Assembly (NCBI GenBank): GCA_029742005.1 | Contig: GCA_029742005.1_4113.1 | Source of the DNA: a phage | Reading direction: 5' to 3' (one strand) | DNA: 64,000 nucleotides | Part shown: in pieces, positions 2,367 through 64,000 of the stretch | How positions within the stretch are numbered: position 1 is the first letter of the stretch | Layout of the letters: each line of letters begins with the position of its first letter | Translations under genes and position numbers: made by a program | Notes under the pieces: model-generated | Told to the model about the DNA's origin: nothing | The model's database searches: none | Seen by the model: the letters and a program-made list of their open reading frames with translations, nothing else

Positions 2367-2711
2367 ATGGCTAATATCAACACTATCGCAAAACAAAATA
2401 TCAACCTGTCTTCTGTTGAAGTTGTACATATTGCCGCTCGGCGTTGGTTCCAGGCTTCATATGGTAACACTTATTTCTCTTTAAGTGTAGACGTAGAAAT
2501 TGATGGTAATTTTATTGAAGTAGTAAACGTGCCGTTCCAATATGGATACGGGGATCACTTTGACACTGTAGCAATGGAAGAATTTAGCAAGGTTATTAAT
2601 ATGGAAGATAAGGAGTTTACACGCGGAACGTACCTTTCACGTTTTTGCCGTGATAATAATATCACTGTTTATAGTTCTGTTAGTGATGTTAAACGCAAAA
2701 AAGATCTTTAA
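2367..2711 (+). CDS. hypothetical protein (paralog of 8255..8578)
   Basis: ORF track; RBS AAGAGGA; shares GNTY..Y..VKRKKD with 8255 ORF. Confidence 0.7.
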   Translation: MANINTIAKQNINLSSVEVVHIAARRWFQASYGNTYFSLSVDVEIDGNFIEVVNVPFQYGYGDHFDTVAMEEFSKVINMEDKEFTRGTYLSRFCRDNNITVYSSVSDVKRKKDL

Positions 2712-2791
2712 TTAGCTTTACTTTATGCAGATACTTTGATATAGTGTCTGCATAGGGGAAAGAAATTAAATTAACTTAAGAGGATAGTATA

Positions 2792-3061
2792 ATGAAAAAT
2801 ATCAGTACTTTAATCGATGCAGGTACACATGTTCGGCGGTCAATGGTTGCAACCAGTACTACAAAACAAGTAGCGAGCGGTTATCTTGTATTTGTGCACG
2901 ATGGTAAACTCCTGGAACGTTCAATCAATTTTGATGTTAAAAACAATTGCCGTTTTATTATCTTTCGCCGTGAACAATATAAGATCGACATTCCAGCGAA
3001 GCCCATTAGCGGGGCGTATAACGTCTATTCATTGTTTGAGCGTCAACCATACACCTATTAA
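2792..3061 (+). CDS. hypothetical protein
   Basis: ORF track; RBS AAGAGGA. Confidence 0.6.
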   Translation: MKNISTLIDAGTHVRRSMVATSTTKQVASGYLVFVHDGKLLERSINFDVKNNCRFIIFRREQYKIDIPAKPISGAYNVYSLFERQPYTY

Positions 3062-3112
3062 TCAAAACATCGTTAGCGGTTGATTTAGGCCGCTTATATT
3101 GAGGATTATACC

Positions 3113-3385
3113 ATGAACGTTAATCAAGTACTGAATGAGATCGAAAGCATCATTAAACCGATGAAGCGTACTGATGCTATGTTAACACCGGAAGAATGCC
3201 GCCTATATGAGCGTTATAGCGTCGAACAAGTCCAGGCAATGGCTATGGCTACCCCAGCCGTTAAACCGCCTGAGAATGCGTTACAGGACGTTACAGGGGA
3301 TTATATCATCAATCCAGTACTAGGGAAGATGGCTGCAATCACCGAAGATCAACAAGACTACTTAAGCCAGTACTTAAAAGGTTAA
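3113..3385 (+). CDS. hypothetical protein
   Basis: ORF track; RBS GAGGA. Confidence 0.65.
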   Translation: MNVNQVLNEIESIIKPMKRTDAMLTPEECRLYERYSVEQVQAMAMATPAVKPPENALQDVTGDYIINPVLGKMAAITEDQQDYLSQYLKG

Positions 3386-3390
3386 TTAAT

Positions 3391-3600
3391 ATGCTTACTG
3401 TACAGGATAAGATCGACATCTTAAAGGTTAATATGTATGTGATTGATGCCGTACCTGGTAAAGTATTTGCATACGATGATAGTACTGTAAGCGATTTCTA
3501 CTATAGCCAGGACGTGGGGGATCTTTCTGTACAGTCGGTTATTGAAAACGTAGTTAATGCAGCGTATGAGCATTTACTTTCAAATAGTACTTGCAATTAG
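3391..3600 (+). CDS. hypothetical protein
   Basis: ORF track; 3' end overlaps next promoter. Confidence 0.55.
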   Translation: MLTVQDKIDILKVNMYVIDAVPGKVFAYDDSTVSDFYYSQDVGDLSVQSVIENVVNAAYEHLLSNSTCN

Positions 3601-3650
3601 TTTTTAAACGCGTATAATGTTTTACATGAAGGGGAGAAATGATTCTCCCC
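3591..3650 (+). promoter_or_regulatory. early promoter plus 5' stem-loop (PeSL-like)
   Basis: TTGCAA, TATAAT 3613-3618, hairpin GGGGAGAAATGATTCTCCCC 3631-3650. Confidence 0.6.
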
Positions 3651-3669
3651 ACTAATTAAGGAATATGAA

Positions 3670-3816
3670 ATGAAAGCATCAAAAAAGAGTAATACCAAGA
3701 AAGCATGTTCACCTTTCGCTGGGGTATTCCCTTTACGTTTCGTTGATGAAGTAGTTTCCTACCCGCCGGGCCTTACTCCTGAGATGGTAGAAAGTTTGCG
3801 TAAATCTAAAAAATAG
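3670..3816 (+). CDS. small hypothetical protein (48 aa)
   Basis: hand-called; RBS AAGGAA; below track cutoff. Confidence 0.45.
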   Translation: MKASKKSNTKKACSPFAGVFPLRFVDEVVSYPPGLTPEMVESLRKSKK

Positions 3817-3819
3817 TAC

Positions 3820-3879
3820 TTGCAATTAGTTTTTAGTACTGTATAATAGTTTACATGAAGGGGAGAAATGGTTCTCCCC
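3820..3879 (+). promoter_or_regulatory. early promoter plus 5' stem-loop (PeSL-like)
   Basis: TTGCAA 3820-3825, TATAAT 3842-3847, hairpin GGGGAGAAATGGTTCTCCCC. Confidence 0.6.
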
Positions 3880-3897
3880 AATAACAGGAGAATCAAA

Positions 3898-4050
3898 ATG
3901 AAACAATACAACGCTCGGTTTGATGTTACTATCGGTAACGGCAAAGGTCAATTCTCTTTCAGTACTCGCAAAAGTTATACAGAAAACTTCCTGCGTAATT
4001 GTGCACTGACCGCCGCACAAATTAAACATTATTTTCAGGCTAAAAAATGA
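3898..4050 (+). CDS. small hypothetical protein (50 aa)
   Basis: track ORF 3868..4050 starts inside the stem-loop; start moved to ATG 3898 behind RBS AGGAG. Confidence 0.5.
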   Translation: MKQYNARFDVTIGNGKGQFSFSTRKSYTENFLRNCALTAAQIKHYFQAKK

Positions 4051-4136
4051 AAACATTAGCTTACTATAGTTCGGCCCTGGTCGGTGCATTGATCGCGGCG
4101 TTGTTAGTAACCTATCTATTCTTTATGGTGATTTAA
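4047..4136 (+). CDS. putative small hydrophobic peptide (29 aa)
   Basis: hand-called; ATGA overlap with upstream stop; single hydrophobic helix. Confidence 0.3.
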   Translation: MKTLAYYSSALVGALIAALLVTYLFFMVI

Positions 4137-4280
4137 ATGAATCCAACAGGTTTAAACTATAAAAGTTGTTCGGCGTTTACGAAAGCAAATAAAGCGAATG
4201 CACGTAAAGCGAAAGTACAGGAATACATCAAGCAAGGCATGACGCGAAAGGCGGCGATTCTAAAAGCTAAAAATAAATGA
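4137..4280 (+). CDS. small basic protein (47 aa)
   Basis: hand-called; TAAATG overlap; Lys-rich. Confidence 0.35.
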   Translation: MNPTGLNYKSCSAFTKANKANARKAKVQEYIKQGMTRKAAILKAKNK

Positions 4281-4470
4281 AAAAAGTGGTTGACTCCGGT
4301 CAGCCATTTTGCTATTATATATTCATTGAGAGATAGCTCACTAGCCCACAGGGTGCATAAGTGTATCTATTATATAAGTATTGAGTACTGAAAACTATTT
4401 TTAAAAAGTACTTGCAAACTATCTCAATTGGCGTATAATGTTTTACATCGCAAGGGGAAACGGTTTCCCC
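4281..4470 (+). repeat. intergenic cassette copy 1: hairpin, conserved core, early promoter, 5' stem-loop
   Basis: AAAAAG-TGGTTGACTCCGGTCAGCCA-TTTT hairpin; core AGCCCACAGGGTGCATAAGTGTATC; TTGCAA 4412-4417, TATAAT 4434-4439. Confidence 0.6.
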
Positions 4471-4490
4471 TGGTAATAAGGAAACGAATC

Positions 4491-4832
4491 ATGACTATCT
4501 CAATTGCTCAATCTAACTTTGAAAACGAAATCATCGCCCAGGCACTGCGTTTAAATGATGGTCGGGCCGAAATTAATTACGGTTTCAATTCAGGCGGTTG
4601 CGAAAAATATCAGTACTTTGTAACGGCTGATGGCGGTGTCCTGGGGATCAATACAGTTATTGTAAACATTCAGAAAATTAATTTCAATGATCCAGAAGAT
4701 AGCCAGTTTTACATCACGGGTGTGAACGTGAACTATGAGGATGATTATCTAACTGATGATCACACTGGCGAGAAGTTAGAAAGTGCATACGGTGAAGATG
4801 ATTATCAGTCCGGTCCAGAAGATTTTGAATAA
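4491..4832 (+). CDS. hypothetical protein (acidic C-terminus)
   Basis: track ORF 4428..4832 starts in the promoter; start moved to ATG 4491 behind RBS AAGGAA. Confidence 0.7.
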   Translation: MTISIAQSNFENEIIAQALRLNDGRAEINYGFNSGGCEKYQYFVTADGGVLGINTVIVNIQKINFNDPEDSQFYITGVNVNYEDDYLTDDHTGEKLESAYGEDDYQSGPEDFE

Positions 4833-4846
4833 TATTAAAAAATAGT

Positions 4847-4906
4847 TTGACAATAGATTATAGTACTGTATAATAAGTTACATCAAGGGGAGAAATGATT
4901 CTCCCC
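4847..4906 (+). promoter_or_regulatory. early promoter plus 5' stem-loop (PeSL-like)
   Basis: TTGACA 4847-4852, 17-nt spacer, TATAAT 4870-4875, hairpin GGGGAGAAATGATTCTCCCC. Confidence 0.65.
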
Positions 4907-4927
4907 CACTAACAAAGAGAAAACAAA

Positions 4928-5140
4928 ATGGCTAATATCTGCACTGTACTGAAAAATGCAAAACAAGTTTTATTTTCTGATCATGAAAATTTCAACAAGG
5001 ATATTACGGGCGTTCGGAATATCAAAGATGTAAAAAGTGTTATGGGTATCTATTGCAATATGAAACGTGTTGGTACGTTCGGCGACAAAGTACTATACCA
5101 GGCAGGGGATTATAACTTTACATTAACCATTATCAATTAA
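4928..5140 (+). CDS. hypothetical protein
   Basis: ORF track; RBS AAGAGA. Confidence 0.65.
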   Translation: MANICTVLKNAKQVLFSDHENFNKDITGVRNIKDVKSVMGIYCNMKRVGTFGDKVLYQAGDYNFTLTIIN

Positions 5141-5158
5141 AATATATTACCAGTACTA

Positions 5159-5187
5159 TTGACAATGATTGATAGTACTGGCATAAT
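5159..5187 (+). promoter_or_regulatory. class-2 promoter
   Basis: AGTACTATTGACA..GATAGTACTGGCATAAT. Confidence 0.55.
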
Positions 5188-5231
5188 AACTTTTATCAAC
5201 AGTAGTTAACTTAACAAAAGAGAGAAACAAA

Positions 5232-5375
5232 ATGATCGCACTAGATTCATTCATCGACGCAGTACTGGCAAAAACTGGCGAGGATCTGACCGCAGAACAA
5301 TACGCGATGATCGAACAATGTCAGCAAAACGGTAAATCGGTGAAAGATACTGTTAAGATTATCCGCAAGATGTAA
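5232..5375 (+). CDS. small hypothetical protein (47 aa)
   Basis: hand-called; RBS AAGAGAGA; followed by terminator. Confidence 0.5.
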   Translation: MIALDSFIDAVLAKTGEDLTAEQYAMIEQCQQNGKSVKDTVKIIRKM

Positions 5376-5380
5376 GATTA

Positions 5381-5410
5381 TAGCCCACTGGTTAACGCTG
5401 GTGGGCTATA
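5381..5410 (+). terminator. terminator-like hairpin containing a Chi octamer
   Basis: TAGCCCAC..GTGGGCTA stem; GCTGGTGG at 5397-5404; weak T-tract. Confidence 0.5.
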
Positions 5411-5677
5411 ATTCATTACCCTATACAATGCCAGTACTAAACCGTTTATCTCGTTAGAATGCGTTACAGGACGTTTGACAATGATTAGCATGAAATCAGT
5501 ACAAAAACAAATAGAAACATTATCAAAAATTAAACGTAAACAATACTCCTTAGAATATAATATCAATGGTAACTATCATCTAATGAAAGAAAATAATTTT
5601 ATAGTCATTGATGAATCATTGCAAATTATTAGTATAGTACTGAAAGCATTAATCAATGACAGAAAAAAGTTAAAATA

Positions 5678-5935
5678 ATGGCTGTAGGATTCGCGAAAGA
5701 CGGGGCCGAGCAAGACGAGATTAACGCAGTGATTCAGGCCGCCGTAAACCACGCTAGAAAGCAAATTAACGCACAAATAGAATCACTGATACATTGCCGC
5801 GACTGCGGCGATATAATCCCTGAGAAACGACGCCAGGCCGTTAAGGGATGTAAGTACTGCATAACTTGCCAGGAGGATCATGATAGTACTTTTAAACGTC
5901 CCCCGCGTAATTGTTGGCATAGATCTATGAGATAA
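5678..5935 (+). CDS. TraR/DksA-like C4 zinc-finger protein (putative)
   Basis: ORF track; CxxC..CxxC pattern (CRDC..CKYC) in a basic ~85-aa protein. Confidence 0.5.
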   Translation: MAVGFAKDGAEQDEINAVIQAAVNHARKQINAQIESLIHCRDCGDIIPEKRRQAVKGCKYCITCQEDHDSTFKRPPRNCWHRSMR

Positions 5936-5941
5936 AAAGTA

Positions 5942-5999
5942 TTGACAGTACTATCCAGTAGTGTTATAGTACTTACATCAAGGGGAAACATCTTCCCCT
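5942..5999 (+). promoter_or_regulatory. early promoter plus 5' stem-loop (PeSL-like)
   Basis: TTGACA 5942-5947, TATAGT, hairpin AGGGGAAACATCTTCCCCT. Confidence 0.55.
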
Positions 6000-6016
6000 A
6001 CTAAGAGGAAATGAAA

Positions 6017-6205
6017 ATGGAAAACTTATCAAGTATTTTAGTACAAGATGATTTCGGTAATCCTGGAAGTGCTATCATTGTTCGGGGTAATAAAGCAACA
6101 TTTGTTATTGCTGGTGGACCTGTACAGCGTAGCATTAAAAACAATGCCGTTACTATTAATAATGTACGCTATCGCTTAGATAAAGAATTGATTCATAAAC
6201 TGTAA
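6017..6205 (+). CDS. hypothetical protein
   Basis: ORF track frame; second ATG 6017 better spaced from RBS AAGAGGA. Confidence 0.6.
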   Translation: MENLSSILVQDDFGNPGSAIIVRGNKATFVIAGGPVQRSIKNNAVTINNVRYRLDKELIHKL

Positions 6206-6232
6206 TATTAATTTAATAGAGGATAACAATAA

Positions 6233-10803: not shown

Positions 10804-11067
10804 ATGAACACTATCGAAATCACTATCAATGCACACGTATACGACAACGTAGTACTGCAAACTACTATGACCGCTAACGATACCAGTACTTTGCGGAATA
10901 CTGTTATTAGTGCTGTATGTGCCGCTATCGGTGATGTCGCCCTGGAAAATGCAAAACACGTAAACGATGGTTTCACTATGTGCAAACGTGATAACGCAAA
11001 ACATATCATCGTAGAAGGTTACGGCGGTGTAGAATATAATGTTTATATGAAAAAAGTACTTGCATAG
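10804..11067 (+). CDS. hypothetical protein
   Basis: track ORF 10750..11067 starts in the -10 box; start moved to ATG 10804 behind RBS CAGGAGA. Confidence 0.65.
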   Translation: MNTIEITINAHVYDNVVLQTTMTANDTSTLRNTVISAVCAAIGDVALENAKHVNDGFTMCKRDNAKHIIVEGYGGVEYNVYMKKVLA

Positions 11068-27738: not shown

Positions 27739-27949
27739 AGAGCCGGAAGTGGTATATTGCTTTAGTGTGAAAGGTTTTGAATACATGATGGATTCGATTT
27801 TGAAGGATACATATTTGGTTCAGATTGCAGTTACAGATAATACAGATAATGCATTACAGCGTGTAATGAATATGTACGAGAAGACAAGTCGAAGGCTTTG
27901 TGCAATGAAAAGGATTGAAGAAATCAAGGTTTCTAGGCTGAATAAATAG
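27725..27949 (+). CDS. hypothetical small protein
   Basis: ORF track. Confidence 0.45.
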   Translation: MITFEEPEVVYCFSVKGFEYMMDSILKDTYLVQIAVTDNTDNALQRVMNMYEKTSRRLCAMKRIEEIKVSRLNK

Positions 27950-57162: not shown

Positions 57163-57891
57163 ATGCTTGACCGTATCCGTTTCGCTACAGAGATGGCGAA
57201 TGAATTAAACATGGCAAATTTCCAAATGTTAACATCAGTAATGGCTGAACATGCATGTGCTTATTCTGTAAGTGGTGTGCAGTGTGGTCAGGAGAATATG
57301 TTAGCAGATGTTTATAGTGAAGTGCAAAGTAAGCAATATAGTGTAAAGACATATAAGGATAAGTTTGTTAGTCTTTATATGAACGAAGATATTGCCGAAG
57401 ACCGTAAATTCACTGATTTTATTATTGAACGCCGAGTATCAGGTGTATCTAATCCTAATGCATCAAGCGAGGAAGTTTTTGCAGAAGTACTGAAAGATAT
57501 ATACGAAAATGAATTAAAAAGTAAGAATCATTACAATGTACGTGAAACTAACACAGTGCTCTTGGGATATGATGAAGACGAAGAATACTATTATTTTCGT
57601 ATGACTGAAGTTCCTTTTGAATACAAATCTCCATATACAACTACAGTGAAAGAATTTACTGAAAAAAGTAAAAACTTCATGAAGCATGAAGGAAATCGTT
57701 GTAGTATAAATGGTTACGACGAAAATGGCATTCACATTTATGAGTGGGTTCACCCAAATTGTCAGACATACACTCGTTGCTTGAAAAAACGTTATAATTT
57801 AGAAGAGCATGAATCATTCTATTTTAAAGTTAAGAAGCAAGGTTACACTCGCCCCGCCGATTCTGAATTGATGGGTATGATATATTTCTAA
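57163..57891 (+). CDS. hypothetical protein (242 aa)
   Basis: track frame 57154..57891; start moved to ATG 57163 behind RBS AAGGAG; TGATATAAT promoter-like box about 45 nt upstream. Confidence 0.6.
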   Translation: MLDRIRFATEMANELNMANFQMLTSVMAEHACAYSVSGVQCGQENMLADVYSEVQSKQYSVKTYKDKFVSLYMNEDIAEDRKFTDFIIERRVSGVSNPNASSEEVFAEVLKDIYENELKSKNHYNVRETNTVLLGYDEDEEYYYFRMTEVPFEYKSPYTTTVKEFTEKSKNFMKHEGNRCSINGYDENGIHIYEWVHPNCQTYTRCLKKRYNLEEHESFYFKVKKQGYTRPADSELMGMIYF

Positions 57892-57901
57892 GGAAACTTC
57901 T

Positions 57902-58183
57902 ATGGATTTTTATCTACACACATGGACATACGAACAATATATTACATTATATCTTGAAATTATTAACACAGAACCTAGGTGTGGTTGTTGGTTCGCAGAT
58001 ATCATAAAAGAGTATGCTGACGAGTTCGAGTTTGTGTATCTTGGGTCTGATATATTTGTAAAAAGTGTAGGTAAAACCGGACGAATCACTGATATAGATT
58101 ACGACACTGTTAGTGTGAATTTCTATGTTGATTTTCCTGATGCTGGAGTTGATGGTGTATATTGTCTTTATGAAATAATTTAA
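57902..58183 (+). CDS. hypothetical protein
   Basis: ORF track. Confidence 0.55.
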   Translation: MDFYLHTWTYEQYITLYLEIINTEPRCGCWFADIIKEYADEFEFVYLGSDIFVKSVGKTGRITDIDYDTVSVNFYVDFPDAGVDGVYCLYEII

Positions 58184-58189
58184 ATTCTT

Positions 58190-58216
58190 AGGCCAGCGTT
58201 TGCTGGTCTTTTTTCG
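58190..58216 (+). terminator. rho-independent terminator
   Basis: AGGCCAGC..GCTGGTCT hairpin then T6. Confidence 0.7.
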
Positions 58217-58227
58217 CAGGTACAAAG

Positions 58228-58530
58228 ATGTTCAGTATAGATTTAATTAACAGTACTATCAAAATGTTGGCTGATTTGGTGAGACAATCCAATGGAACTT
58301 TATATCCATCAATGTATAAAATGTTTGACCGATACATCAAGGATTGTAACATATCATTATATGGACTTACTGTTGATATAGACGATTACTATGGAATTAA
58401 TACTTCATATAAAACAGGAATTTTAATTGGTATTAATATAAAGATGGGGTATTTCCCTTATTACTGTATAGGATTACCAGATAATACTTTGGTAGAATAT
58501 CCAGCCAGTACTATTAAATTAAGAGGATAA
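58228..58530 (+). CDS. hypothetical protein
   Basis: ORF track. Confidence 0.55.
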   Translation: MFSIDLINSTIKMLADLVRQSNGTLYPSMYKMFDRYIKDCNISLYGLTVDIDDYYGINTSYKTGILIGINIKMGYFPYYCIGLPDNTLVEYPASTIKLRG

Positions 58531-58537
58531 AACTAAA

Positions 58538-59116
58538 ATGAATGTATTAGAATTAAGTACTAAGCTGATTAGTATGCGTAATGAGTGGTACGATTGGTTT
58601 TATAATGGTACTGATATGAATTTTTCAAAATATCCATTTATGGAATCAGGATGTGATTCAAGATACCGCTGGTTGAGCAAAAGTGATTCTGGTTTACATA
58701 TTAGAATCGATGATAGTGGTCGAGGAATTATACACGATTTACTTCAAGTTGATCAATTCGTCCATGACAATTGGTGTGATAACGATCCATACCTTGGAAA
58801 TATGATTTATATAAGTGAAGATGATTGCGTATTCGTTATCCAGCGACATGGTAATTCTATGTTTTATGTAGCAGACAGCAGTACACCAGAAGGTGCAGCA
58901 GCCGATGGACTTATGCCTAAAATTGATATATTGGAATTTGGATTACCTGAGCACTTCCAGATTAGTACTTTATACGATATTCCACCACTTGAGTTCTTTG
59001 AAGAATTTAAATTGTACTTCAATGATCTTCAAAAATTGAGTACTGATAGACGCATTGAAATAACTGTTAAGTACATGGACGGAACGAAATTAACCGATAC
59101 GGGGATAGAATTTTGA
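58538..59116 (+). CDS. fam2-like protein
   Basis: ORF track; motif LPEHFQISTLYD. Confidence 0.55.
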   Translation: MNVLELSTKLISMRNEWYDWFYNGTDMNFSKYPFMESGCDSRYRWLSKSDSGLHIRIDDSGRGIIHDLLQVDQFVHDNWCDNDPYLGNMIYISEDDCVFVIQRHGNSMFYVADSSTPEGAAADGLMPKIDILEFGLPEHFQISTLYDIPPLEFFEEFKLYFNDLQKLSTDRRIEITVKYMDGTKLTDTGIEF

Positions 59117-59802
59117 TTAAAGATTTAGATAGAATTTTATATGTACTAAGGGGTGTAATTACATTACATCCACAAATCAATCGAATTGAAAGTACATTTC
59201 AGTTGGAGTCAAGAGAAACTCCATATTCACATATATCAAATGTAGTTGGTTCACTCAGTACTGAAGACTCGTCTTACGATATTTGTGTATGTGAAGTACA
59301 ACCAAGTTCGGATCTTGGATTTGCTATTTTTGATAAAAATCAAAATCTCATTAGTATGTTTCAGTGCAATAATCCTTTTTGGAAAACATGCCTGTATCCA
59401 GAGTGGGCTATGCTTGATCCAACCAAGAGTACCATTAAAGTTTATGACTCTAAAAATGATGAAGTCGTTATTGATTTGGATGAGTCAATGTCAGAGGAAG
59501 AACACTTTCAGCTAATGATGATGCGTGCTATGCCTGAATACAATGCAATGATTAACACAGTGCAATACATTAAGGATACCATGCCATCGTTGCGTACACA
59601 TGAGTTTTGTCATCCGGTATTGTATGAACATCTAGATTTAGACTTCAGTACTATTAAATTTAAAGATAGTGTTATTAGATATATCCAAGAAGTTACTAAA
59701 TTTAATTTCATTAGTACAATGAATAATAACCCTGAAACAAATTTCAGACGACAATATAATGAATCTTTGTCTAATGGACGTGATACCAGTTGGTGGAAAT
59801 AA
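59113..59802 (+). CDS. fam2-like protein
   Basis: ORF track; motif EEEHFQLMMMRA. Confidence 0.55.
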   Translation: MIKDLDRILYVLRGVITLHPQINRIESTFQLESRETPYSHISNVVGSLSTEDSSYDICVCEVQPSSDLGFAIFDKNQNLISMFQCNNPFWKTCLYPEWAMLDPTKSTIKVYDSKNDEVVIDLDESMSEEEHFQLMMMRAMPEYNAMINTVQYIKDTMPSLRTHEFCHPVLYEHLDLDFSTIKFKDSVIRYIQEVTKFNFISTMNNNPETNFRRQYNESLSNGRDTSWWK

Positions 59803-59803
59803 T

Positions 59804-59956
59804 ATGAATATCCAAGATAGATTACAATTACTGTACACACTTGAACAGGCTGCTTATGAACTTGTTCGAAAAATCTCTGAAGAACTCCCTAAAGGAACTA
59901 AAGTTCGTGTACGTGAGATGAATTATTTTTCTGGAAAATTGAAGAACAAGTACTAA
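59804..59956 (+). CDS. small hypothetical protein (50 aa)
   Basis: track frame 59759..59956; start moved to ATG 59804 (TAATATG junction). Confidence 0.4.
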   Translation: MNIQDRLQLLYTLEQAAYELVRKISEELPKGTKVRVREMNYFSGKLKNKY

Positions 59957-60062
59957 CAGTGAATAAAGTAACATACTATGAATCTGAGTTGTCTATTCAG
60001 TGTGAATCAGATGATGGATTAATATCATATTATGGGACTGATATAGACATAGAGGTAATAAA

Positions 60063-61205
60063 ATGACCCTTTTGCAAATATATGAAGATTTAATGCACTT
60101 ATGTAATACAAACGATGCATTCTTTTATGTGGATCATAAAAGTCCTGCTGGTGGCACGTATCGTGTATTCAGTTATCGTCTAGCATCATACACTGATTTC
60201 ATGCAACCAAATGCGTTGGAAACCCGTGGCTCTATGTGGGAAATTGATGAAGAAGGTGAAATGATACGTTGTGCAGCACGTACAATGAAAAAGTTCTTCA
60301 ATGCTTACGAGAATCCTGCTACAATGTTCCCTGCTAACACCACATGCGATGACATTGCGGTAGTGATGCCTAAGTTGGATGGTTCGATTATCAGTACTTA
60401 CCGTGATAATGATGGTGAGATTCGTTGTAAATCACATACTGCATTGTATTCTGACCATGCGATTAATAGTACTCGACTTATTAACGAGAACCAGAATTTG
60501 TATCAGTACATCGACGAAGCGGAACGTTTAGGTTACACAGTTAATATGGAGTATACAAGCCCAGAGTACCGAATTGTATTACCATATCAGGTAGAACAAC
60601 TGTTTGTACTGAACGTTCGTCATCGTGTGAGTGGTGAGTTGCTATGTGGTAAAGCACTACGTGATAAGTTTCCATGTCTTGCACAGTACAGTACTAATAT
60701 GACTGGAAAAGATATTCATCACACTTTTCCGGTACGAAATACCTTCCGTGAAAGCGTGGAGGAAGTTCATAAAATGCTTGATATTGAGGGTTTTGTGTGC
60801 ATCCTAAATAATGGGACAATGTGTAAAATAAAGACTGACTGGTACAGTTCATTACATCTTACAAAAGATAGTATTATTATTGATTCTCATTTATATGAAG
60901 CAGTATTAAATGGTTCAAGTGATGATTTAAAACAATTGTTCAGTACTGATGAATATGCTATGCAAAAGATATTAAGAATGGAACAATTGGTATTTTCGTG
61001 CTATAATGCATTACAAGATGAAGTAGAAAGCTTCGTCAAGGAACACAAGCACTTGGAGCGAAAGGAATTCGCAATGAAGGTTCAGGAGTGTTTAACTAAT
61101 GAACTGAATCGTCAGGGCTTGGCCTTTGCAATGTATAACAATAAGAAAGTTGATTACAAAGAGACTCTTATAAAATACATGAAAATTGTACTAAAGGATT
61201 TTTAG
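60063..61205 (+). CDS. rnlA: RNA ligase 1 (T4 RnlA-like)
   Basis: ORF track; RBS GAGG; KxDG adenylation motif (PKLDGS); YRVFSY, EKFFN..ENP, KIKTDWY..LH..K and SDDLK blocks match recalled T4 RnlA in order; T4-like length 380 aa. Confidence 0.8.
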   Translation: MTLLQIYEDLMHLCNTNDAFFYVDHKSPAGGTYRVFSYRLASYTDFMQPNALETRGSMWEIDEEGEMIRCAARTMKKFFNAYENPATMFPANTTCDDIAVVMPKLDGSIISTYRDNDGEIRCKSHTALYSDHAINSTRLINENQNLYQYIDEAERLGYTVNMEYTSPEYRIVLPYQVEQLFVLNVRHRVSGELLCGKALRDKFPCLAQYSTNMTGKDIHHTFPVRNTFRESVEEVHKMLDIEGFVCILNNGTMCKIKTDWYSSLHLTKDSIIIDSHLYEAVLNGSSDDLKQLFSTDEYAMQKILRMEQLVFSCYNALQDEVESFVKEHKHLERKEFAMKVQECLTNELNRQGLAFAMYNNKKVDYKETLIKYMKIVLKDF

Positions 61206-61235
61206 TACTATCTAGCCTAAGCACAAGGAGAAGTG

Positions 61236-61490
61236 ATGGCTAAACCTAAGTATAAAAATGACGGTTCCCTTTCTCCGACTGAGTTCAGGAAAATACAAGA
61301 AGAAATCGATGAATTACAGCACAAACGCTCAATGAAAGGTGTGAAGATAAGTAAGAAACGAATCGAGAATACCTTCGGATGTAGTAGTACTGAATACAAG
61401 AAGAAAAGGAAACCAAAAGGTGTTAAGCCGAGAATACATGATGTAACTCGCTATACATCGAAACGTGAAAATAAATTTGATCCACTATAA
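61236..61490 (+). CDS. hypothetical basic protein
   Basis: track frame 61233..61490 (GTG); ATG 61236 behind RBS AAGGAGAAG. Confidence 0.55.
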   Translation: MAKPKYKNDGSLSPTEFRKIQEEIDELQHKRSMKGVKISKKRIENTFGCSSTEYKKKRKPKGVKPRIHDVTRYTSKRENKFDPL

Positions 61491-61499
61491 GGAGTTCAT

Positions 61500-61730
61500 A
61501 TGAAAGTTGAAGTTCAGCATAGTATTGTTCAGGATATGTCAGTAGTTAAATTTCTTTCTCTGAAAGATTACTTCAGATGTATCAAGTTCCTAGAAGAATC
61601 TCAATTACAGTGGACCCCATTAAAGTACAGTTCATCCAATGATACTGCTAGTATTCGTTGTGATGAATCTGTACTTGTGAAAATCTCCAAGCGATTTGGA
61701 GTAGGAAAAGTTAATGAGCACAGTAAGTGA
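61500..61730 (+). CDS. hypothetical protein
   Basis: ORF track; RBS AAGGAG. Confidence 0.55.
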   Translation: MKVEVQHSIVQDMSVVKFLSLKDYFRCIKFLEESQLQWTPLKYSSSNDTASIRCDESVLVKISKRFGVGKVNEHSK

Positions 61731-61968
61731 CCTAAAATACTACAACAAAACTGCGGATACGTTTATTACTCATTTATATGAAGAATTTAGTCGTATCCGT
61801 AAGGAATATACAGGTAAATGTATTTTATATAGTTCTTATCATAGTGGTGGAATTGAAAGTGCTTACATTACTAAAGTGAAGTTTTCTGATGACTATCAAT
61901 TACTCTTTGAATTAGATGATTGTTTCGTTATTGAAGCTTGTTTGATAGTGGATGTTCTAGATAATTGA
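61714..61968 (+). CDS. hypothetical protein
   Basis: ORF track. Confidence 0.5.
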   Translation: MSTVSDLKYYNKTADTFITHLYEEFSRIRKEYTGKCILYSSYHSGGIESAYITKVKFSDDYQLLFELDDCFVIEACLIVDVLDN

Positions 61969-61974
61969 GGACAT

Positions 61975-62289
61975 ATGAATAAAGAACTTGCATTTGAGAG
62001 GATCGAAAAGTTAAAGTACATTGAAAAGGAACTAATAGAATCTGTCGAATCAATGGTCGAAGATTACGTTTTCGATTTTAAGAAAACATTGATTGGATGT
62101 AAAGTTAAATGCTGGGATCATACAATCAGAGAATGGTTCAGTACTATAATTCTTGATGTTAAAGTATCGCGTACTGCTATTGGTAATTTAGTAAATGGTG
62201 AATGCTTTGTATACACTGAATACAATAACGGAACAAGAAACCTTTCAAGAGGATGGCACAAACTCGAAGATGTAGAATTCATTGAGTAA
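61975..62289 (+). CDS. hypothetical protein
   Basis: ORF track; RBS GAGGA. Confidence 0.55.
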   Translation: MNKELAFERIEKLKYIEKELIESVESMVEDYVFDFKKTLIGCKVKCWDHTIREWFSTIILDVKVSRTAIGNLVNGECFVYTEYNNGTRNLSRGWHKLEDVEFIE

Positions 62290-62301
62290 CAAGGAGTAAT
62301 A

Positions 62302-63234
62302 ATGCCAACTATTACACTAACAGTTGGATTACCTGGGTGTGGTAAAACCACATGGGCAGTTCAAGAAATTAAAAATGCCAAATCCAAGACTATCAACATC
62401 AACCGTGATGATATTCGTGAATCTATGGCTGGGTCACATGATGCTTACAAATTCAACGATGCTAATGAGCAGTACGTAACTAATTTACAGTTCAGTGCAG
62501 CAAATTCAGCAGCAGAGAATGGTTGGAACATCATCATATCCGATACAAACCTTAAACAACATTTCCGTAATCTCTGGAAAGTATGGGCTAAAGATAATGG
62601 TTATGATTACAAAGAAAAGAACTTCTATGATGATTTTGTACCTAATGAAGACCGTGGTGCAGATGTTCATGAATTCTTTAAGATTAAAGAGTTCGTAAAA
62701 CTTTGTAAGAAATATAACCTTCAGCGTGAGCGTTCAGTACAAGATAATATCATTGACACAATGGCAGATACGTACTATTATAGTAAGGCATTGCACATTG
62801 GTTACTATGGTAATTCACGAGAAGCTGCTGTTATCGTTGATATTGACGGTACTCTTGCTCATAAATGGGGTCGTAATCCTTACGATGAAAGTACTGTTCT
62901 TCAGGATACACCTGATGAAGAAGTTATTTTGTCTATTATCGCTGAAGCAGTTTTTCATAAACGCAAGATTATCGTCATGAGTGGGCGTACTGAAGGGTGT
63001 CGTACTGACACCGAACAGTGGCTTAAGAATTGGGGTGTTCCTTACGATGCATTGTTTATGCGAGGCATCGATGATAAACGTCCTGATGATGTTGTTAAAT
63101 TCGACCTGTACATGAAAAATGTGGTTAATCAATACGATGTTAAAAAGGTATATGATGACCGCGAAGCCGTGACGTTCATGTGGCGTAAGCTACTTGGTTT
63201 GAAGGTATTTCAAGTAGATTTTGGACGTTTTTGA
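62302..63234 (+). CDS. pnk: polynucleotide 5'-kinase / 3'-phosphatase (T4 Pnk-like)
   Basis: ORF track; RBS AAGGAG; N-terminal P-loop GLPGCGKTT; C-terminal HAD-type DxDGT (VDIDGTLA); blocks match recalled T4 Pnk in order. Confidence 0.8.
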   Translation: MPTITLTVGLPGCGKTTWAVQEIKNAKSKTININRDDIRESMAGSHDAYKFNDANEQYVTNLQFSAANSAAENGWNIIISDTNLKQHFRNLWKVWAKDNGYDYKEKNFYDDFVPNEDRGADVHEFFKIKEFVKLCKKYNLQRERSVQDNIIDTMADTYYYSKALHIGYYGNSREAAVIVDIDGTLAHKWGRNPYDESTVLQDTPDEEVILSIIAEAVFHKRKIIVMSGRTEGCRTDTEQWLKNWGVPYDALFMRGIDDKRPDDVVKFDLYMKNVVNQYDVKKVYDDREAVTFMWRKLLGLKVFQVDFGRF

Positions 63235-63274
63235 TAAAATAAATAGTGCATATATGACAAAAAGGACTTTCTAT

Positions 63275-63961
63275 ATGCACTATTATATTATATATAAAAT
63301 AACCAATTTAATTAATAATAAAATTTATATTGGTGCTCATATGACTGATGACATAAATGATGAATATATGGGTTCAGGTGTTCTGATAAAGAAATCCATT
63401 AAGAAATATGGAATTGAAAAATTCAATAAAGAAATACTTTATATTTTTGATAATAAAGAAGAAATGTATAACAAAGAAAGAGAAATTGTTAATGAACAAT
63501 TTATACAAAGAAGCGACACATATAACATCAAACGTGGTGGAGAAGGTGGCTACGGCGTAATTGATAAAGAAAATTGGAAAAAACAAATATCAACGACACA
63601 AAAGAAGCGATATTCTTCAGGTGTTGTGGCTTGGAATAAAGGTAAATCTGTATCAGAAGAAACACGTATTCAAATGAGTCAGAGGATGAAAGGTCGTTTC
63701 CCTGGAGATAAAAATCCTATGCATGGTAAACCCTGTACATATAAAATGACAGATGAAGAAAAAACATCATGGTCCAACAATATAAAGAAATCAAACACTG
63801 GTAAAAAGAGAACTGATGTTCAAAAACAAAAATATTCTTCGGTCGCGTCAAAACGAATTTGGTTAGTTCATAAAAGTGGTAAAGTTACTAATACACAAAA
63901 TGAAAATGACCCACGTTTGAATGATCCAGATTGGCAACGTGGTCAAAAGTGGAGAGAATGA
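63275..63961 (+). CDS. GIY-YIG homing endonuclease (Seg/I-TevI-like)
   Basis: track frame 63221..63961; start moved to ATG 63275 behind RBS AAAGGA; IYKITN..KIYIG..NIKRGGEG pattern; basic C-terminal half; locally very AT-rich. Confidence 0.65.
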   Translation: MHYYIIYKITNLINNKIYIGAHMTDDINDEYMGSGVLIKKSIKKYGIEKFNKEILYIFDNKEEMYNKEREIVNEQFIQRSDTYNIKRGGEGGYGVIDKENWKKQISTTQKKRYSSGVVAWNKGKSVSEETRIQMSQRMKGRFPGDKNPMHGKPCTYKMTDEEKTSWSNNIKKSNTGKKRTDVQKQKYSSVASKRIWLVHKSGKVTNTQNENDPRLNDPDWQRGQKWRE

Positions 63962-64000
63962 ATATTTTTATGGATTATAATTTTTGAGGGATCATAATTT

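Follow-up and report, generated by a model that had tools for sequence, protein, structure and literature searches.

Does a phage locus in which the genes of an RNA ligase and a polynucleotide kinase lie close together, next to a homing endonuclease gene, constitute a dedicated anti-defence island that moves as one unit, or is it composed of parts with separate histories? The question is raised by positions 60063–63961 of a 64,000-nt stretch of phage DNA (GCA_029742005.1, contig GCA_029742005.1_4113.1), the whole of which is referred to as the window. We consider it probable that the locus has two layers, namely a vertically inherited T4-type heal-and-seal module containing the genes of RNA ligase 1 (Rnl1, encoded by rnlA) and the 5'-kinase/3'-phosphatase Pnkp (encoded by pnk), and a recently acquired selfish gene of the Seg type. 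An earlier note on this DNA had recognised an RNA-repair pair and a mobile homing endonuclease, and both of these held; its further proposals of a special island and of mobilisation of the locus by the endonuclease did not.

The source of the window is an Asteriusvirus-type jumbo coliphage. The segment is 97–99% identical to E9.1, G17, 121Q, PBECO4 and others (36 related records), with E9.1 at 99% identity, which was also the value obtained by BLAST for window positions 59800–61717. Past the window end the sequence is continued by the Logan contig L104 (SRR21990203), which matches window 57275–64000 with 100% identity. The locus contains seven open reading frames (ORFs), all on the plus strand and tightly packed (-17 to 40 nt apart), each preceded by a good Shine-Dalgarno sequence. 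All seven were found with the coordinates and the strand first reported for them, and the distance of about 1.1 kb between the two repair genes, counted from the stop codon of rnlA up to the start codon of pnk, came to 1,096 bp, with four small ORFs inside.

The product of rnlA (60063–61205, 380 amino acids) is a T4-type Rnl1. It matched the Pfam family RNA_lig_T4_1 (PF09511) with 58.7 bits (cutoff 28.3), phrog_562 with E=3.5e-109 and the sequence of the T4 Rnl1 structure 2c5u with E=1.1e-56, and it is 36% identical to T4 Rnl1. The C-terminal domain was recognised as T4_Rnl1_C (PF20819; 62.4 bits, cutoff 27, E=6.6e-17) at residues 268–379; this all-helical domain is specific to Rnl1 and is the tRNA-specificity domain in T4. 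The covalent nucleotidyltransferase motifs I, III, IV and V and the lysine nucleophile are present, the latter as K104 in PKLDGS, which aligned to T4 K99 of the KxDG motif. In the pairwise alignment the counterparts of T4 R54, K75, F77, K99, G102, K119, E159, E227/G228 and K240/K242 are all invariant. Similarly, pnk (62302–63234, 310 amino acids) encodes a T4-type Pnkp with a kinase domain of the AAA_33 family (E=3.4e-13), a phosphatase domain of the HAD_PNKP family (PF25109; E=2.7e-40) and a match to the sequence of the T4 Pnkp structure 1ltq (E=2.1e-35). The kinase motifs GLPGCGKTT and NINRDDIR aligned to GCPGSGKST and NINRDDYR of T4, the phosphatase motif DIDGT aligned to DVDGT, and the SGR and DDR motifs are conserved. 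The profile searches therefore bear out both enzyme assignments, with domains above cutoff, full length and complete catalytic motifs. In T4, Pnkp and Rnl1 together repair tRNA cleaved by the host anticodon nuclease PrrC. Since both enzymes of the window retain all catalytic motifs, a T4-like role in healing and sealing tRNA is reasonable by homology, and a role against host defence may be supposed on the same ground. The RNA-repair pair is real, but it is known and already annotated in sister genomes, as E9.1, 121Q, PBECO4 and other relatives carry annotations of an RNA ligase and a polynucleotide kinase.

The healing and the sealing enzyme are thus encoded together on one strand, and this tight linkage had been taken as the sign of an anti-defence island. 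Comparison with T4 showed the same order and strand, with four small ORFs between both genes. The T4 order is rnlA-alc-pseT.3-pseT.2-pseT.1-pseT, and its spacer is 1,432 bp. Among Rnl1 loci of IMG/VR, 63 of 76 have pnk downstream on the same strand at a distance of 98–4,184 bp, and the order of rnlA followed by pnk is kept in all 36 Asteriusvirus-type records. Because T4 and these IMG/VR loci share the arrangement, the linkage of rnlA and pnk does not mark a special island; judged by gene order, the succession of rnlA, small ORFs and pnk on one strand is an ancestral arrangement common to T4. What lies between the two genes varies, and in T-even-type phages the spacer holds alc and two spanin genes, whose functions are unrelated to RNA repair. 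The likeness to T4 Rnl1 (gene 63, rnlA) and Pnkp (pseT) extends over families, catalytic motifs, the Rnl1 C-terminal domain, gene order, strand and the number of spacer ORFs. The enzymes differ from those of T4 in being 33–36% identical to them; the spacer of the window is without alc, spanin or pseT.1 homologs and holds two jumbo-phage-specific ORFs (ORF1 and ORF2); nor is a host nuclease matched to this phage, or an Stp-like activator, known. In a survey of jumbo phages, Iyer et al (2021; PMC7824862) described RNA repair by ATP-grasp ligases of the Rnl1 and Rnl2 types and PNK-HAD kinase-phosphatases, and in the passages concerned they read such systems as tRNA repair. The enzyme pair and the type of phage are the same as here, and those passages make no mention of the two small module proteins or of a pnk-linked Seg endonuclease.

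The four spacer ORFs had been proposed as accessory factors, and this proposal divided into two. When compared with T4 alc and pseT.1–3 by BLASTP, none of the four showed homology, and the alignment of ORF2 to the pseT.1 family profile gave an hhalign probability of 0.2%. The two ORFs nearest to pnk are patchy or diverged. ORF3 (61714–61968, 84 amino acids) is lineage-specific and confined to the 121Q-type spacer; just 13 records, all of Escherichia phages, contain it, PBECO4-type genomes and the related phage TH47 lack it, and it had no PHROG or Pfam match. ORF4 (61975–62289, 104 amino acids; phrog_31355, function unknown) is Asteriusvirus-specific, its homologs occur in Escherichia phages only, and it exists as two highly diverged alleles, the copy of the window being 34% identical (E=1e-17) to gp126 of PBECO4 at the same position. 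A swap of the spacer cassette was observed here between window 61718–62301 and positions 5920–6230 of PBECO4 (L003). The 121Q-type spacer has ORF3 and ORF4 in 584 bp, and the PBECO4 type, also present in TH47, has a single ORF of 103 amino acids in 311 bp, which is the 34% identical ORF4 allele; the flanks of the swap are 97–99% identical, resulting in a sharp mosaic boundary. Because ORF3 is mostly missing from relatives and the ORF4 alleles are so far apart, both are poor candidates for accessory factors and are lineage-specific filler of Asteriusvirus.

The other two small ORFs appear as conserved members of the module. ORF1 (61236–61490) encodes a basic protein of 84 amino acids (isoelectric point 10.1; phrog_15306, function unknown), and its homologs (39–61% identity) invariably start 6–45 nt after an Rnl1 gene; even the most divergent ones (39–46% identity), on four divergent metagenomic contigs, lie 6–28 nt downstream of such a gene. 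A pattern in its sequence, GV..S.KRI.NTFG.SST.YKK, had led to the guess of a resolvase-type helix-turn-helix, which was rejected as the AlphaFold2 model showed one long helix (residues 14–45) with a short helix and no globular fold (pLDDT 79.5, pTM 0.47). ORF2 (61500–61730, 76 amino acids) has a small ACT/ferredoxin-like fold and is the most conserved gene of the module; in the jumbo-phage clade it usually overlaps the pnk start. Both ORFs recur in Yersinia phage fHe-Yen9-04, Pectobacterium phage CBB, Xanthomonas phage XaC1 and Salmonella phage Munch, as well as in Erwinia, Serratia, Cronobacter and Klebsiella phages. In the four named phages the order rnlA-ORF1-(X)-ORF2-pnk is constant, and the genes flanking the module differ in XaC1 and Munch. 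Identity to the window copy across these lineages is 60–73% for ORF2, 52–58% for ORF1, 49–59% for Rnl1 and 41–57% for Pnkp, so that ORF2 is more conserved than either enzyme. Furthermore, all 17 IMG/VR contigs holding ORF1 or ORF2 have rnlA upstream and pnk downstream. These results make ORF1 and ORF2 reasonable candidates for accessory factors, and as such they might, for example, bring in broken tRNAs, or detect a host nuclease or neutralise it.

The element X in this order is a third conserved small ORF of about 75 amino acids, which was observed between the ORF1 and ORF2 homologs in other jumbo-phage genera (L094, 3230–3457; L095, 3230–3454; L096, 3291–3515; L097, 2764–2991). No similar ORF was found anywhere in the window, and the contigs L100 and L101 have an ORF of 74–77 amino acids at the X position, which the X profile did not detect. 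A different composition was seen in the IMG/VR contig L119 (345,809 bp), where rnlA, ORF2 and pnk are kept at 2656–5930, each 64–66% identical to the window, ORF1 and X are missing and about 780 bp separates ORF2 from pnk. This natural variant could help to judge whether ORF1 is needed.

The gene following pnk (63275–63961, 228 amino acids) is a free-standing Seg-type GIY-YIG homing endonuclease gene, in agreement with the first assignment, as it matched the 'homing endonuclease' family phrog_314 with E=7.6e-48, its clade carries the GIY-YIG and NUMOD3 domains, and its distribution and junctions are those of a mobile gene. The likely start is the ATG at 63275, which has AAGGA 8 nt upstream, and not the TTG at 63221. 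All seven clade members matched PF01541 (best E=3.5e-7), SegE_GIY-YIG and NUMOD3; in the window copy NUMOD3 (21.1 bits, cutoff 20.4) is the sole Pfam domain reaching its cutoff. The motif YIIY...KIYIG, a conserved Glu and YN are present in the window copy and invariant in the clade, and no clear Arg equivalent could be assigned. The ORF is intact and keeps every clade-invariant residue, and because of this the enzyme is assumed to be active, with a GIY-YIG score below cutoff and no match by sequence to a solved structure. The gene has no paralogs in the window. It is intergenic, since pnk is complete and ends 40 nt upstream, and the possibility of an intron-encoded endonuclease was rejected because a search for group I introns and other Rfam families at E<=1 gave nothing but a chance snoRNA match. 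That match, to snoZ159 at 60912–60993 inside rnlA, was sub-threshold (26.8 bits, gathering score 39, E=0.067) and is almost certainly due to chance. The endonuclease segment had also been described as very AT-rich, which was true of the first 286 bp of the gene (25.5% GC, window mean 33.7%) and not of the whole gene, which has 30.6% GC and stands at the 18th percentile of equal-sized windows.

The gene was present in only one of the 36 related records, TH47, with 99.1% identity, and this sporadic distribution allowed its junctions to be compared at base level with relatives that lack a homing endonuclease gene (HEG). Relative to the HEG-less E9.1, 121Q and PBECO4, the insert covers 63216–63986 (plus strand) and takes the place of the final 19 bp of their pnk and about 7 intergenic bp. 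The exchanged DNA is larger than the insert. Mismatch counts against E9.1 and TH47 placed a left crossover inside pnk, in the interval 62944–63003. To the left of it (672 nt) the window is E9.1-like, with 3 mismatches to E9.1 as against 36 to TH47, and to the right of it (261 nt, from 63004) the window equals TH47, with 0 mismatches as against 29 to E9.1; the two contrasts gave Fisher p=6e-14 and 1e-5. The 3' end of pnk (63004–63234, plus strand) has therefore been co-inherited with the endonuclease gene as a distinct allele ending ...VDFGRF, which is identical to TH47 and about 12% off E9.1, 121Q and PBECO4, the last five codons being DFGRF instead of AEGNF. A cluster of differences stands at 63162–63174, beside the conserved DDR codons. 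On the right side, which was followed on L104, identity to TH47 runs about 175–210 bp beyond the insert, and the return to the E9.1/121Q type occurs at L104 6886–6922, equal to a virtual window position of 64160–64196. The tract thus measures about 1.2 kb and comprises the endonuclease gene, about 230–290 bp of the pnk 3' end and about 175–210 bp downstream. A second strain (L103) has the same endonuclease gene with other tract ends. The last letters of the window (63987–64000, plus strand) are the start of a hairpin with a T-run (AGGGATCA taatt TGGTCCC TTTTT), which follows pnk in the HEG-less relatives and is cut off by the window end; it is complete in TH47 and L104, and phage Munch has an annotated terminator at the equivalent place.

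Such a tract is the expected footprint of homing by double-strand-break repair, and it suggests a recent homing event in which the cleavage itself is inferred. The proposal that the endonuclease mobilises the locus did not survive this mapping, as the tract ends inside pnk and is without rnlA or spacer, and TH47 and the window share the endonuclease yet carry different spacer versions; movement of the whole locus was ruled out by the crossovers at both sides. Judged from these junctions, the endonuclease gene is a selfish passenger that moves itself and short flanks, and not the repair locus.

The relatives of the endonuclease gene also point to a fixed site. After TH47, the next-best phage records are 'Seg-like' genes of 40–48% identity. 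All six checked homologs of at least 40% identity, those of Morganella MP1, Enterobacter vB_Ent31, Providencia PSTRCR_127, E. coli PNJ-9, Proteus PM2 and Aeromonas ZPAH1 (Straboviridae), follow pnk on its strand at a distance of about 50 bp, whereas all three checked homologs below 40% are found at other places, one within a tRNA cluster, one close to a dNMP kinase gene and one beside nrdD. Three more jumbo-phage contigs have homologs of 57–59% identity, again directly after pnk. By its gene neighbourhoods, the lineage resides immediately after pnk, in Straboviridae as well as in jumbo phages. Divergence of the pnk 3' end was raised beside the endonuclease gene in two of three informative Straboviridae comparisons (PNJ-9 and PM2). 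The gene resembles the T4 Seg genes (SegA–G; relatives are named 'SegD-like') in NUMOD3 and, at the level of its clade, an N-terminal GIY-YIG domain, and further in its intergenic and free-standing position, its sporadic occurrence and the co-conversion of flanking DNA. It differs from them as a distinct clade whose identity to sequenced Straboviridae homologs does not exceed 48% and which is specific to the site after pnk; T4 itself has no seg gene after pseT. A literature search found no publication on a pseT-linked Seg endonuclease.

The expression of the endonuclease gene appears to be controlled at the junction with pnk. An RNA hairpin is predicted at 63238–63289 (plus strand; dG -18 kcal/mol, z=-4.1, with 0 of 200 shuffles as stable), which has the Shine-Dalgarno sequence AAGGA (63262–63266) in its loop and the endonuclease start codon (63275–63277) in its 3' arm. 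The element (ATAAATAGTGCATA, Shine-Dalgarno loop, TATGCACTAT) is kept in three other jumbo contigs with z=-5.5 to -5.8, and hairpins burying the Shine-Dalgarno sequence, the AUG or both were predicted in all nine pnk-linked homologs, those of MP1, PM2, Ent31 and PNJ-9 being weak. At the 5' base of the hairpin lies a late-promoter-like motif, AATAAATA (63238–63245, plus strand), which matches 7 of the 8 positions of TATAAATA, the T4 late-promoter consensus, and the homologous elements of L108 and L116 have TATAAATA in perfect form. TAAATA, the core of TATAAATA, was found 18 times on both strands of the whole window against 138 ± 12 expected from dinucleotide shuffles, an about eightfold depletion, and the copy at 63240–63245 is one of 11 on the plus strand (others are, e.g., at 60805–60810 and 27943–27948). 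Likewise, the whole window has no TATAAATA (14 expected) and no CATAAATA or GATAAATA (about 9 expected). This suggests that the phage uses TAAATA as a functional signal and avoids it in this region, and AATAAATA may be used as a late promoter. Control by a hairpin that sequesters the start site together with a late promoter has been published for I-TevI, mobE and segB of T4 (PMC3014915), and the layout predicted here matches it.

The two-layer reading can be put as the following course of events. In the first layer, a host anticodon nuclease would cut tRNA, Pnkp would strip the 2',3'-cyclic or 3'-phosphate and phosphorylate the 5'-OH, and Rnl1 would reseal the break, with ORF1 and ORF2 as candidate accessory factors inside the jumbo-phage module. 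In the second layer, during co-infection, the endonuclease would cleave genomes that lack its gene, close to the 3' end of pnk, and their repair off the endonuclease-bearing genome would copy the gene and a few hundred bp on each side, leaving a TH47-like patch of about 1.2 kb in an E9.1/121Q-like backbone. The activity of the enzyme and its target site are inferred in this scheme. Expression would probably be delayed, as transcripts reading through from pnk would fold the hairpin that hides the start codon, and transcripts starting from the late-promoter-like motif at its base would lack the 5' arm.

Several points weigh against this reading, and they concern both layers. For the module, the anti-PrrC role rests on 33–36% identity to the T4 enzymes, we know of no host nuclease that this phage counters, and no tRNA genes were found in the window. 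ORF1 is missing from L119 and ORF2 from L100 and L101, and the synteny of both could equally be explained by vertical inheritance among related genomes. For the endonuclease, the window copy scored 16.7 bits against Pfam GIY-YIG (E=0.009), below the cutoff of 22.6 bits, and searches of PDB sequences with the single sequence and with the clade profile returned no meaningful match. The promoter-like motif is imperfect at 7 of 8 positions, in Ent31 the 3' end of pnk shows no cluster of divergence, and ordinary recombination might in principle account for the 1.2-kb patch.

This last point leads to the explanation that the GIY-YIG gene is an inactive relic and that the TH47-like patch arose from ordinary homologous recombination in co-infection, for which the sub-cutoff Pfam score and the broad mosaicism of these phages, as seen in the spacer swap and in the patchy pnk of TH47 itself, can be cited. 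An intact ORF that is 99.1% identical to TH47 and keeps all clade-invariant residues speaks against a relic. The patch has the gene at its centre and short flanks of roughly equal length, two strains differ in their tract ends, the regulatory hairpin is conserved and distant phage families carry the lineage at one and the same site; taken together, these observations make the relic explanation very unlikely. That the four small ORFs are all accessory repair factors of a dedicated anti-defence island, which the endonuclease mobilises, is to be regarded as very unlikely. The tight packing on one strand with good ribosome-binding sites and the conservation of ORF1 and ORF2 would agree with it, whereas ORF3 is absent from most relatives, the ORF4 allele is just 34% identical, the equivalent T4 spacer carries functions unrelated to repair, the co-transferred tract stops at 62944–63003 within pnk so that rnlA and the spacer are excluded, and the same endonuclease accompanies different spacer types. 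With respect to ORF3, ORF4 and locus mobilisation, these comparisons largely refute the island.

There is also the question whether Rnl1 and Pnkp act mainly outside counter-defence, in tail-fibre attachment as T4 gp63 does without catalysis, in the processing of RNA or DNA ends or in the maturation of phage tRNA or mRNA. The second function of T4 gp63 is documented and has passed into the names used by PHROG and RefSeq, E. coli rarely carries PrrC, and the lack of tRNA genes in the window also speaks for such a role. The conservation of all ligase and kinase/phosphatase catalytic residues over deep divergence and the retention of the tRNA-specificity C-terminal domain argue against it, the pairing of the genes in the majority of Rnl1 loci (63/76) fits a joint enzymatic pathway, and the jumbo-phage survey interprets such systems, in the passages cited above, as tRNA repair (PMC7824862). 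We therefore hold this alternative to be rather unlikely and prefer the reading of an inherited tRNA-repair module joined by a homing gene.

Some features of the surroundings were noticed besides. About 1.9 kb 5' of rnlA, at 58190–58209, two small ORFs are separated by a terminator-like hairpin (AGGCCAGCGTTTGCTGGTCT followed by TTTTTT). This may be where a transcription unit begins that takes in rnlA and pnk and closes at the hairpin beyond the endonuclease gene. The small ORF just 5' of rnlA, a homolog of 121Q gp437 and of an ORF of 102 amino acids in E9.1, has a 1-nt deletion near 59936 relative to E9.1, 121Q, PBECO4 and TH47, which splits it into 59759–59956 and 59959–60066. The frameshift is also present in the identical contig L104, and the ORF is intact in the sister strain L103; the split ORF at 59759–60066 may be a true pseudogene, or both sequences may share a sequencing error. 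A Pfam search of six upstream neighbours gave no matches. In divergent jumbo-phage contigs, a calcineurin-like metallophosphatase gene (Pfam Metallophos) recurs shortly downstream of pnk (L100, 2914–3627; L101, 6044–6760), and in E9.1 (L001) it begins at 10859, about 3.4 kb after pnk; it is annotated as 'NinI-like serine-threonine phosphatase' in E9.1, 121Q and PBECO4.

The core of the locus, a T4-like RNA-repair pair, is textbook knowledge and adds little alone. The new points are modest and consist of a pnk-specific Seg lineage common to two phage groups and of two orphan proteins in the jumbo-phage repair module. It is possible, and we put it forward tentatively, that ORF1 and ORF2, the latter usually coupled to pnk in translation, are unrecognised subunits or specificity factors of the jumbo-phage tRNA-repair machine, and that the pnk-linked Seg lineage is a single family targeting the conserved pnk 3' end, which has crossed between Straboviridae and jumbo phages. 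The locus offers what is probably a natural example of homing, in which both crossovers are mapped within about 40–60 bp and a Seg-type lineage is tied to the post-pnk site in two phage groups; the mapped tract gives a defined target region for biochemistry and can serve to trace gene flow among jumbo phages. As tRNA-targeting defences turn up widely, ORF1 and ORF2 are concrete candidates for cofactors of RNA repair or anti-defence.

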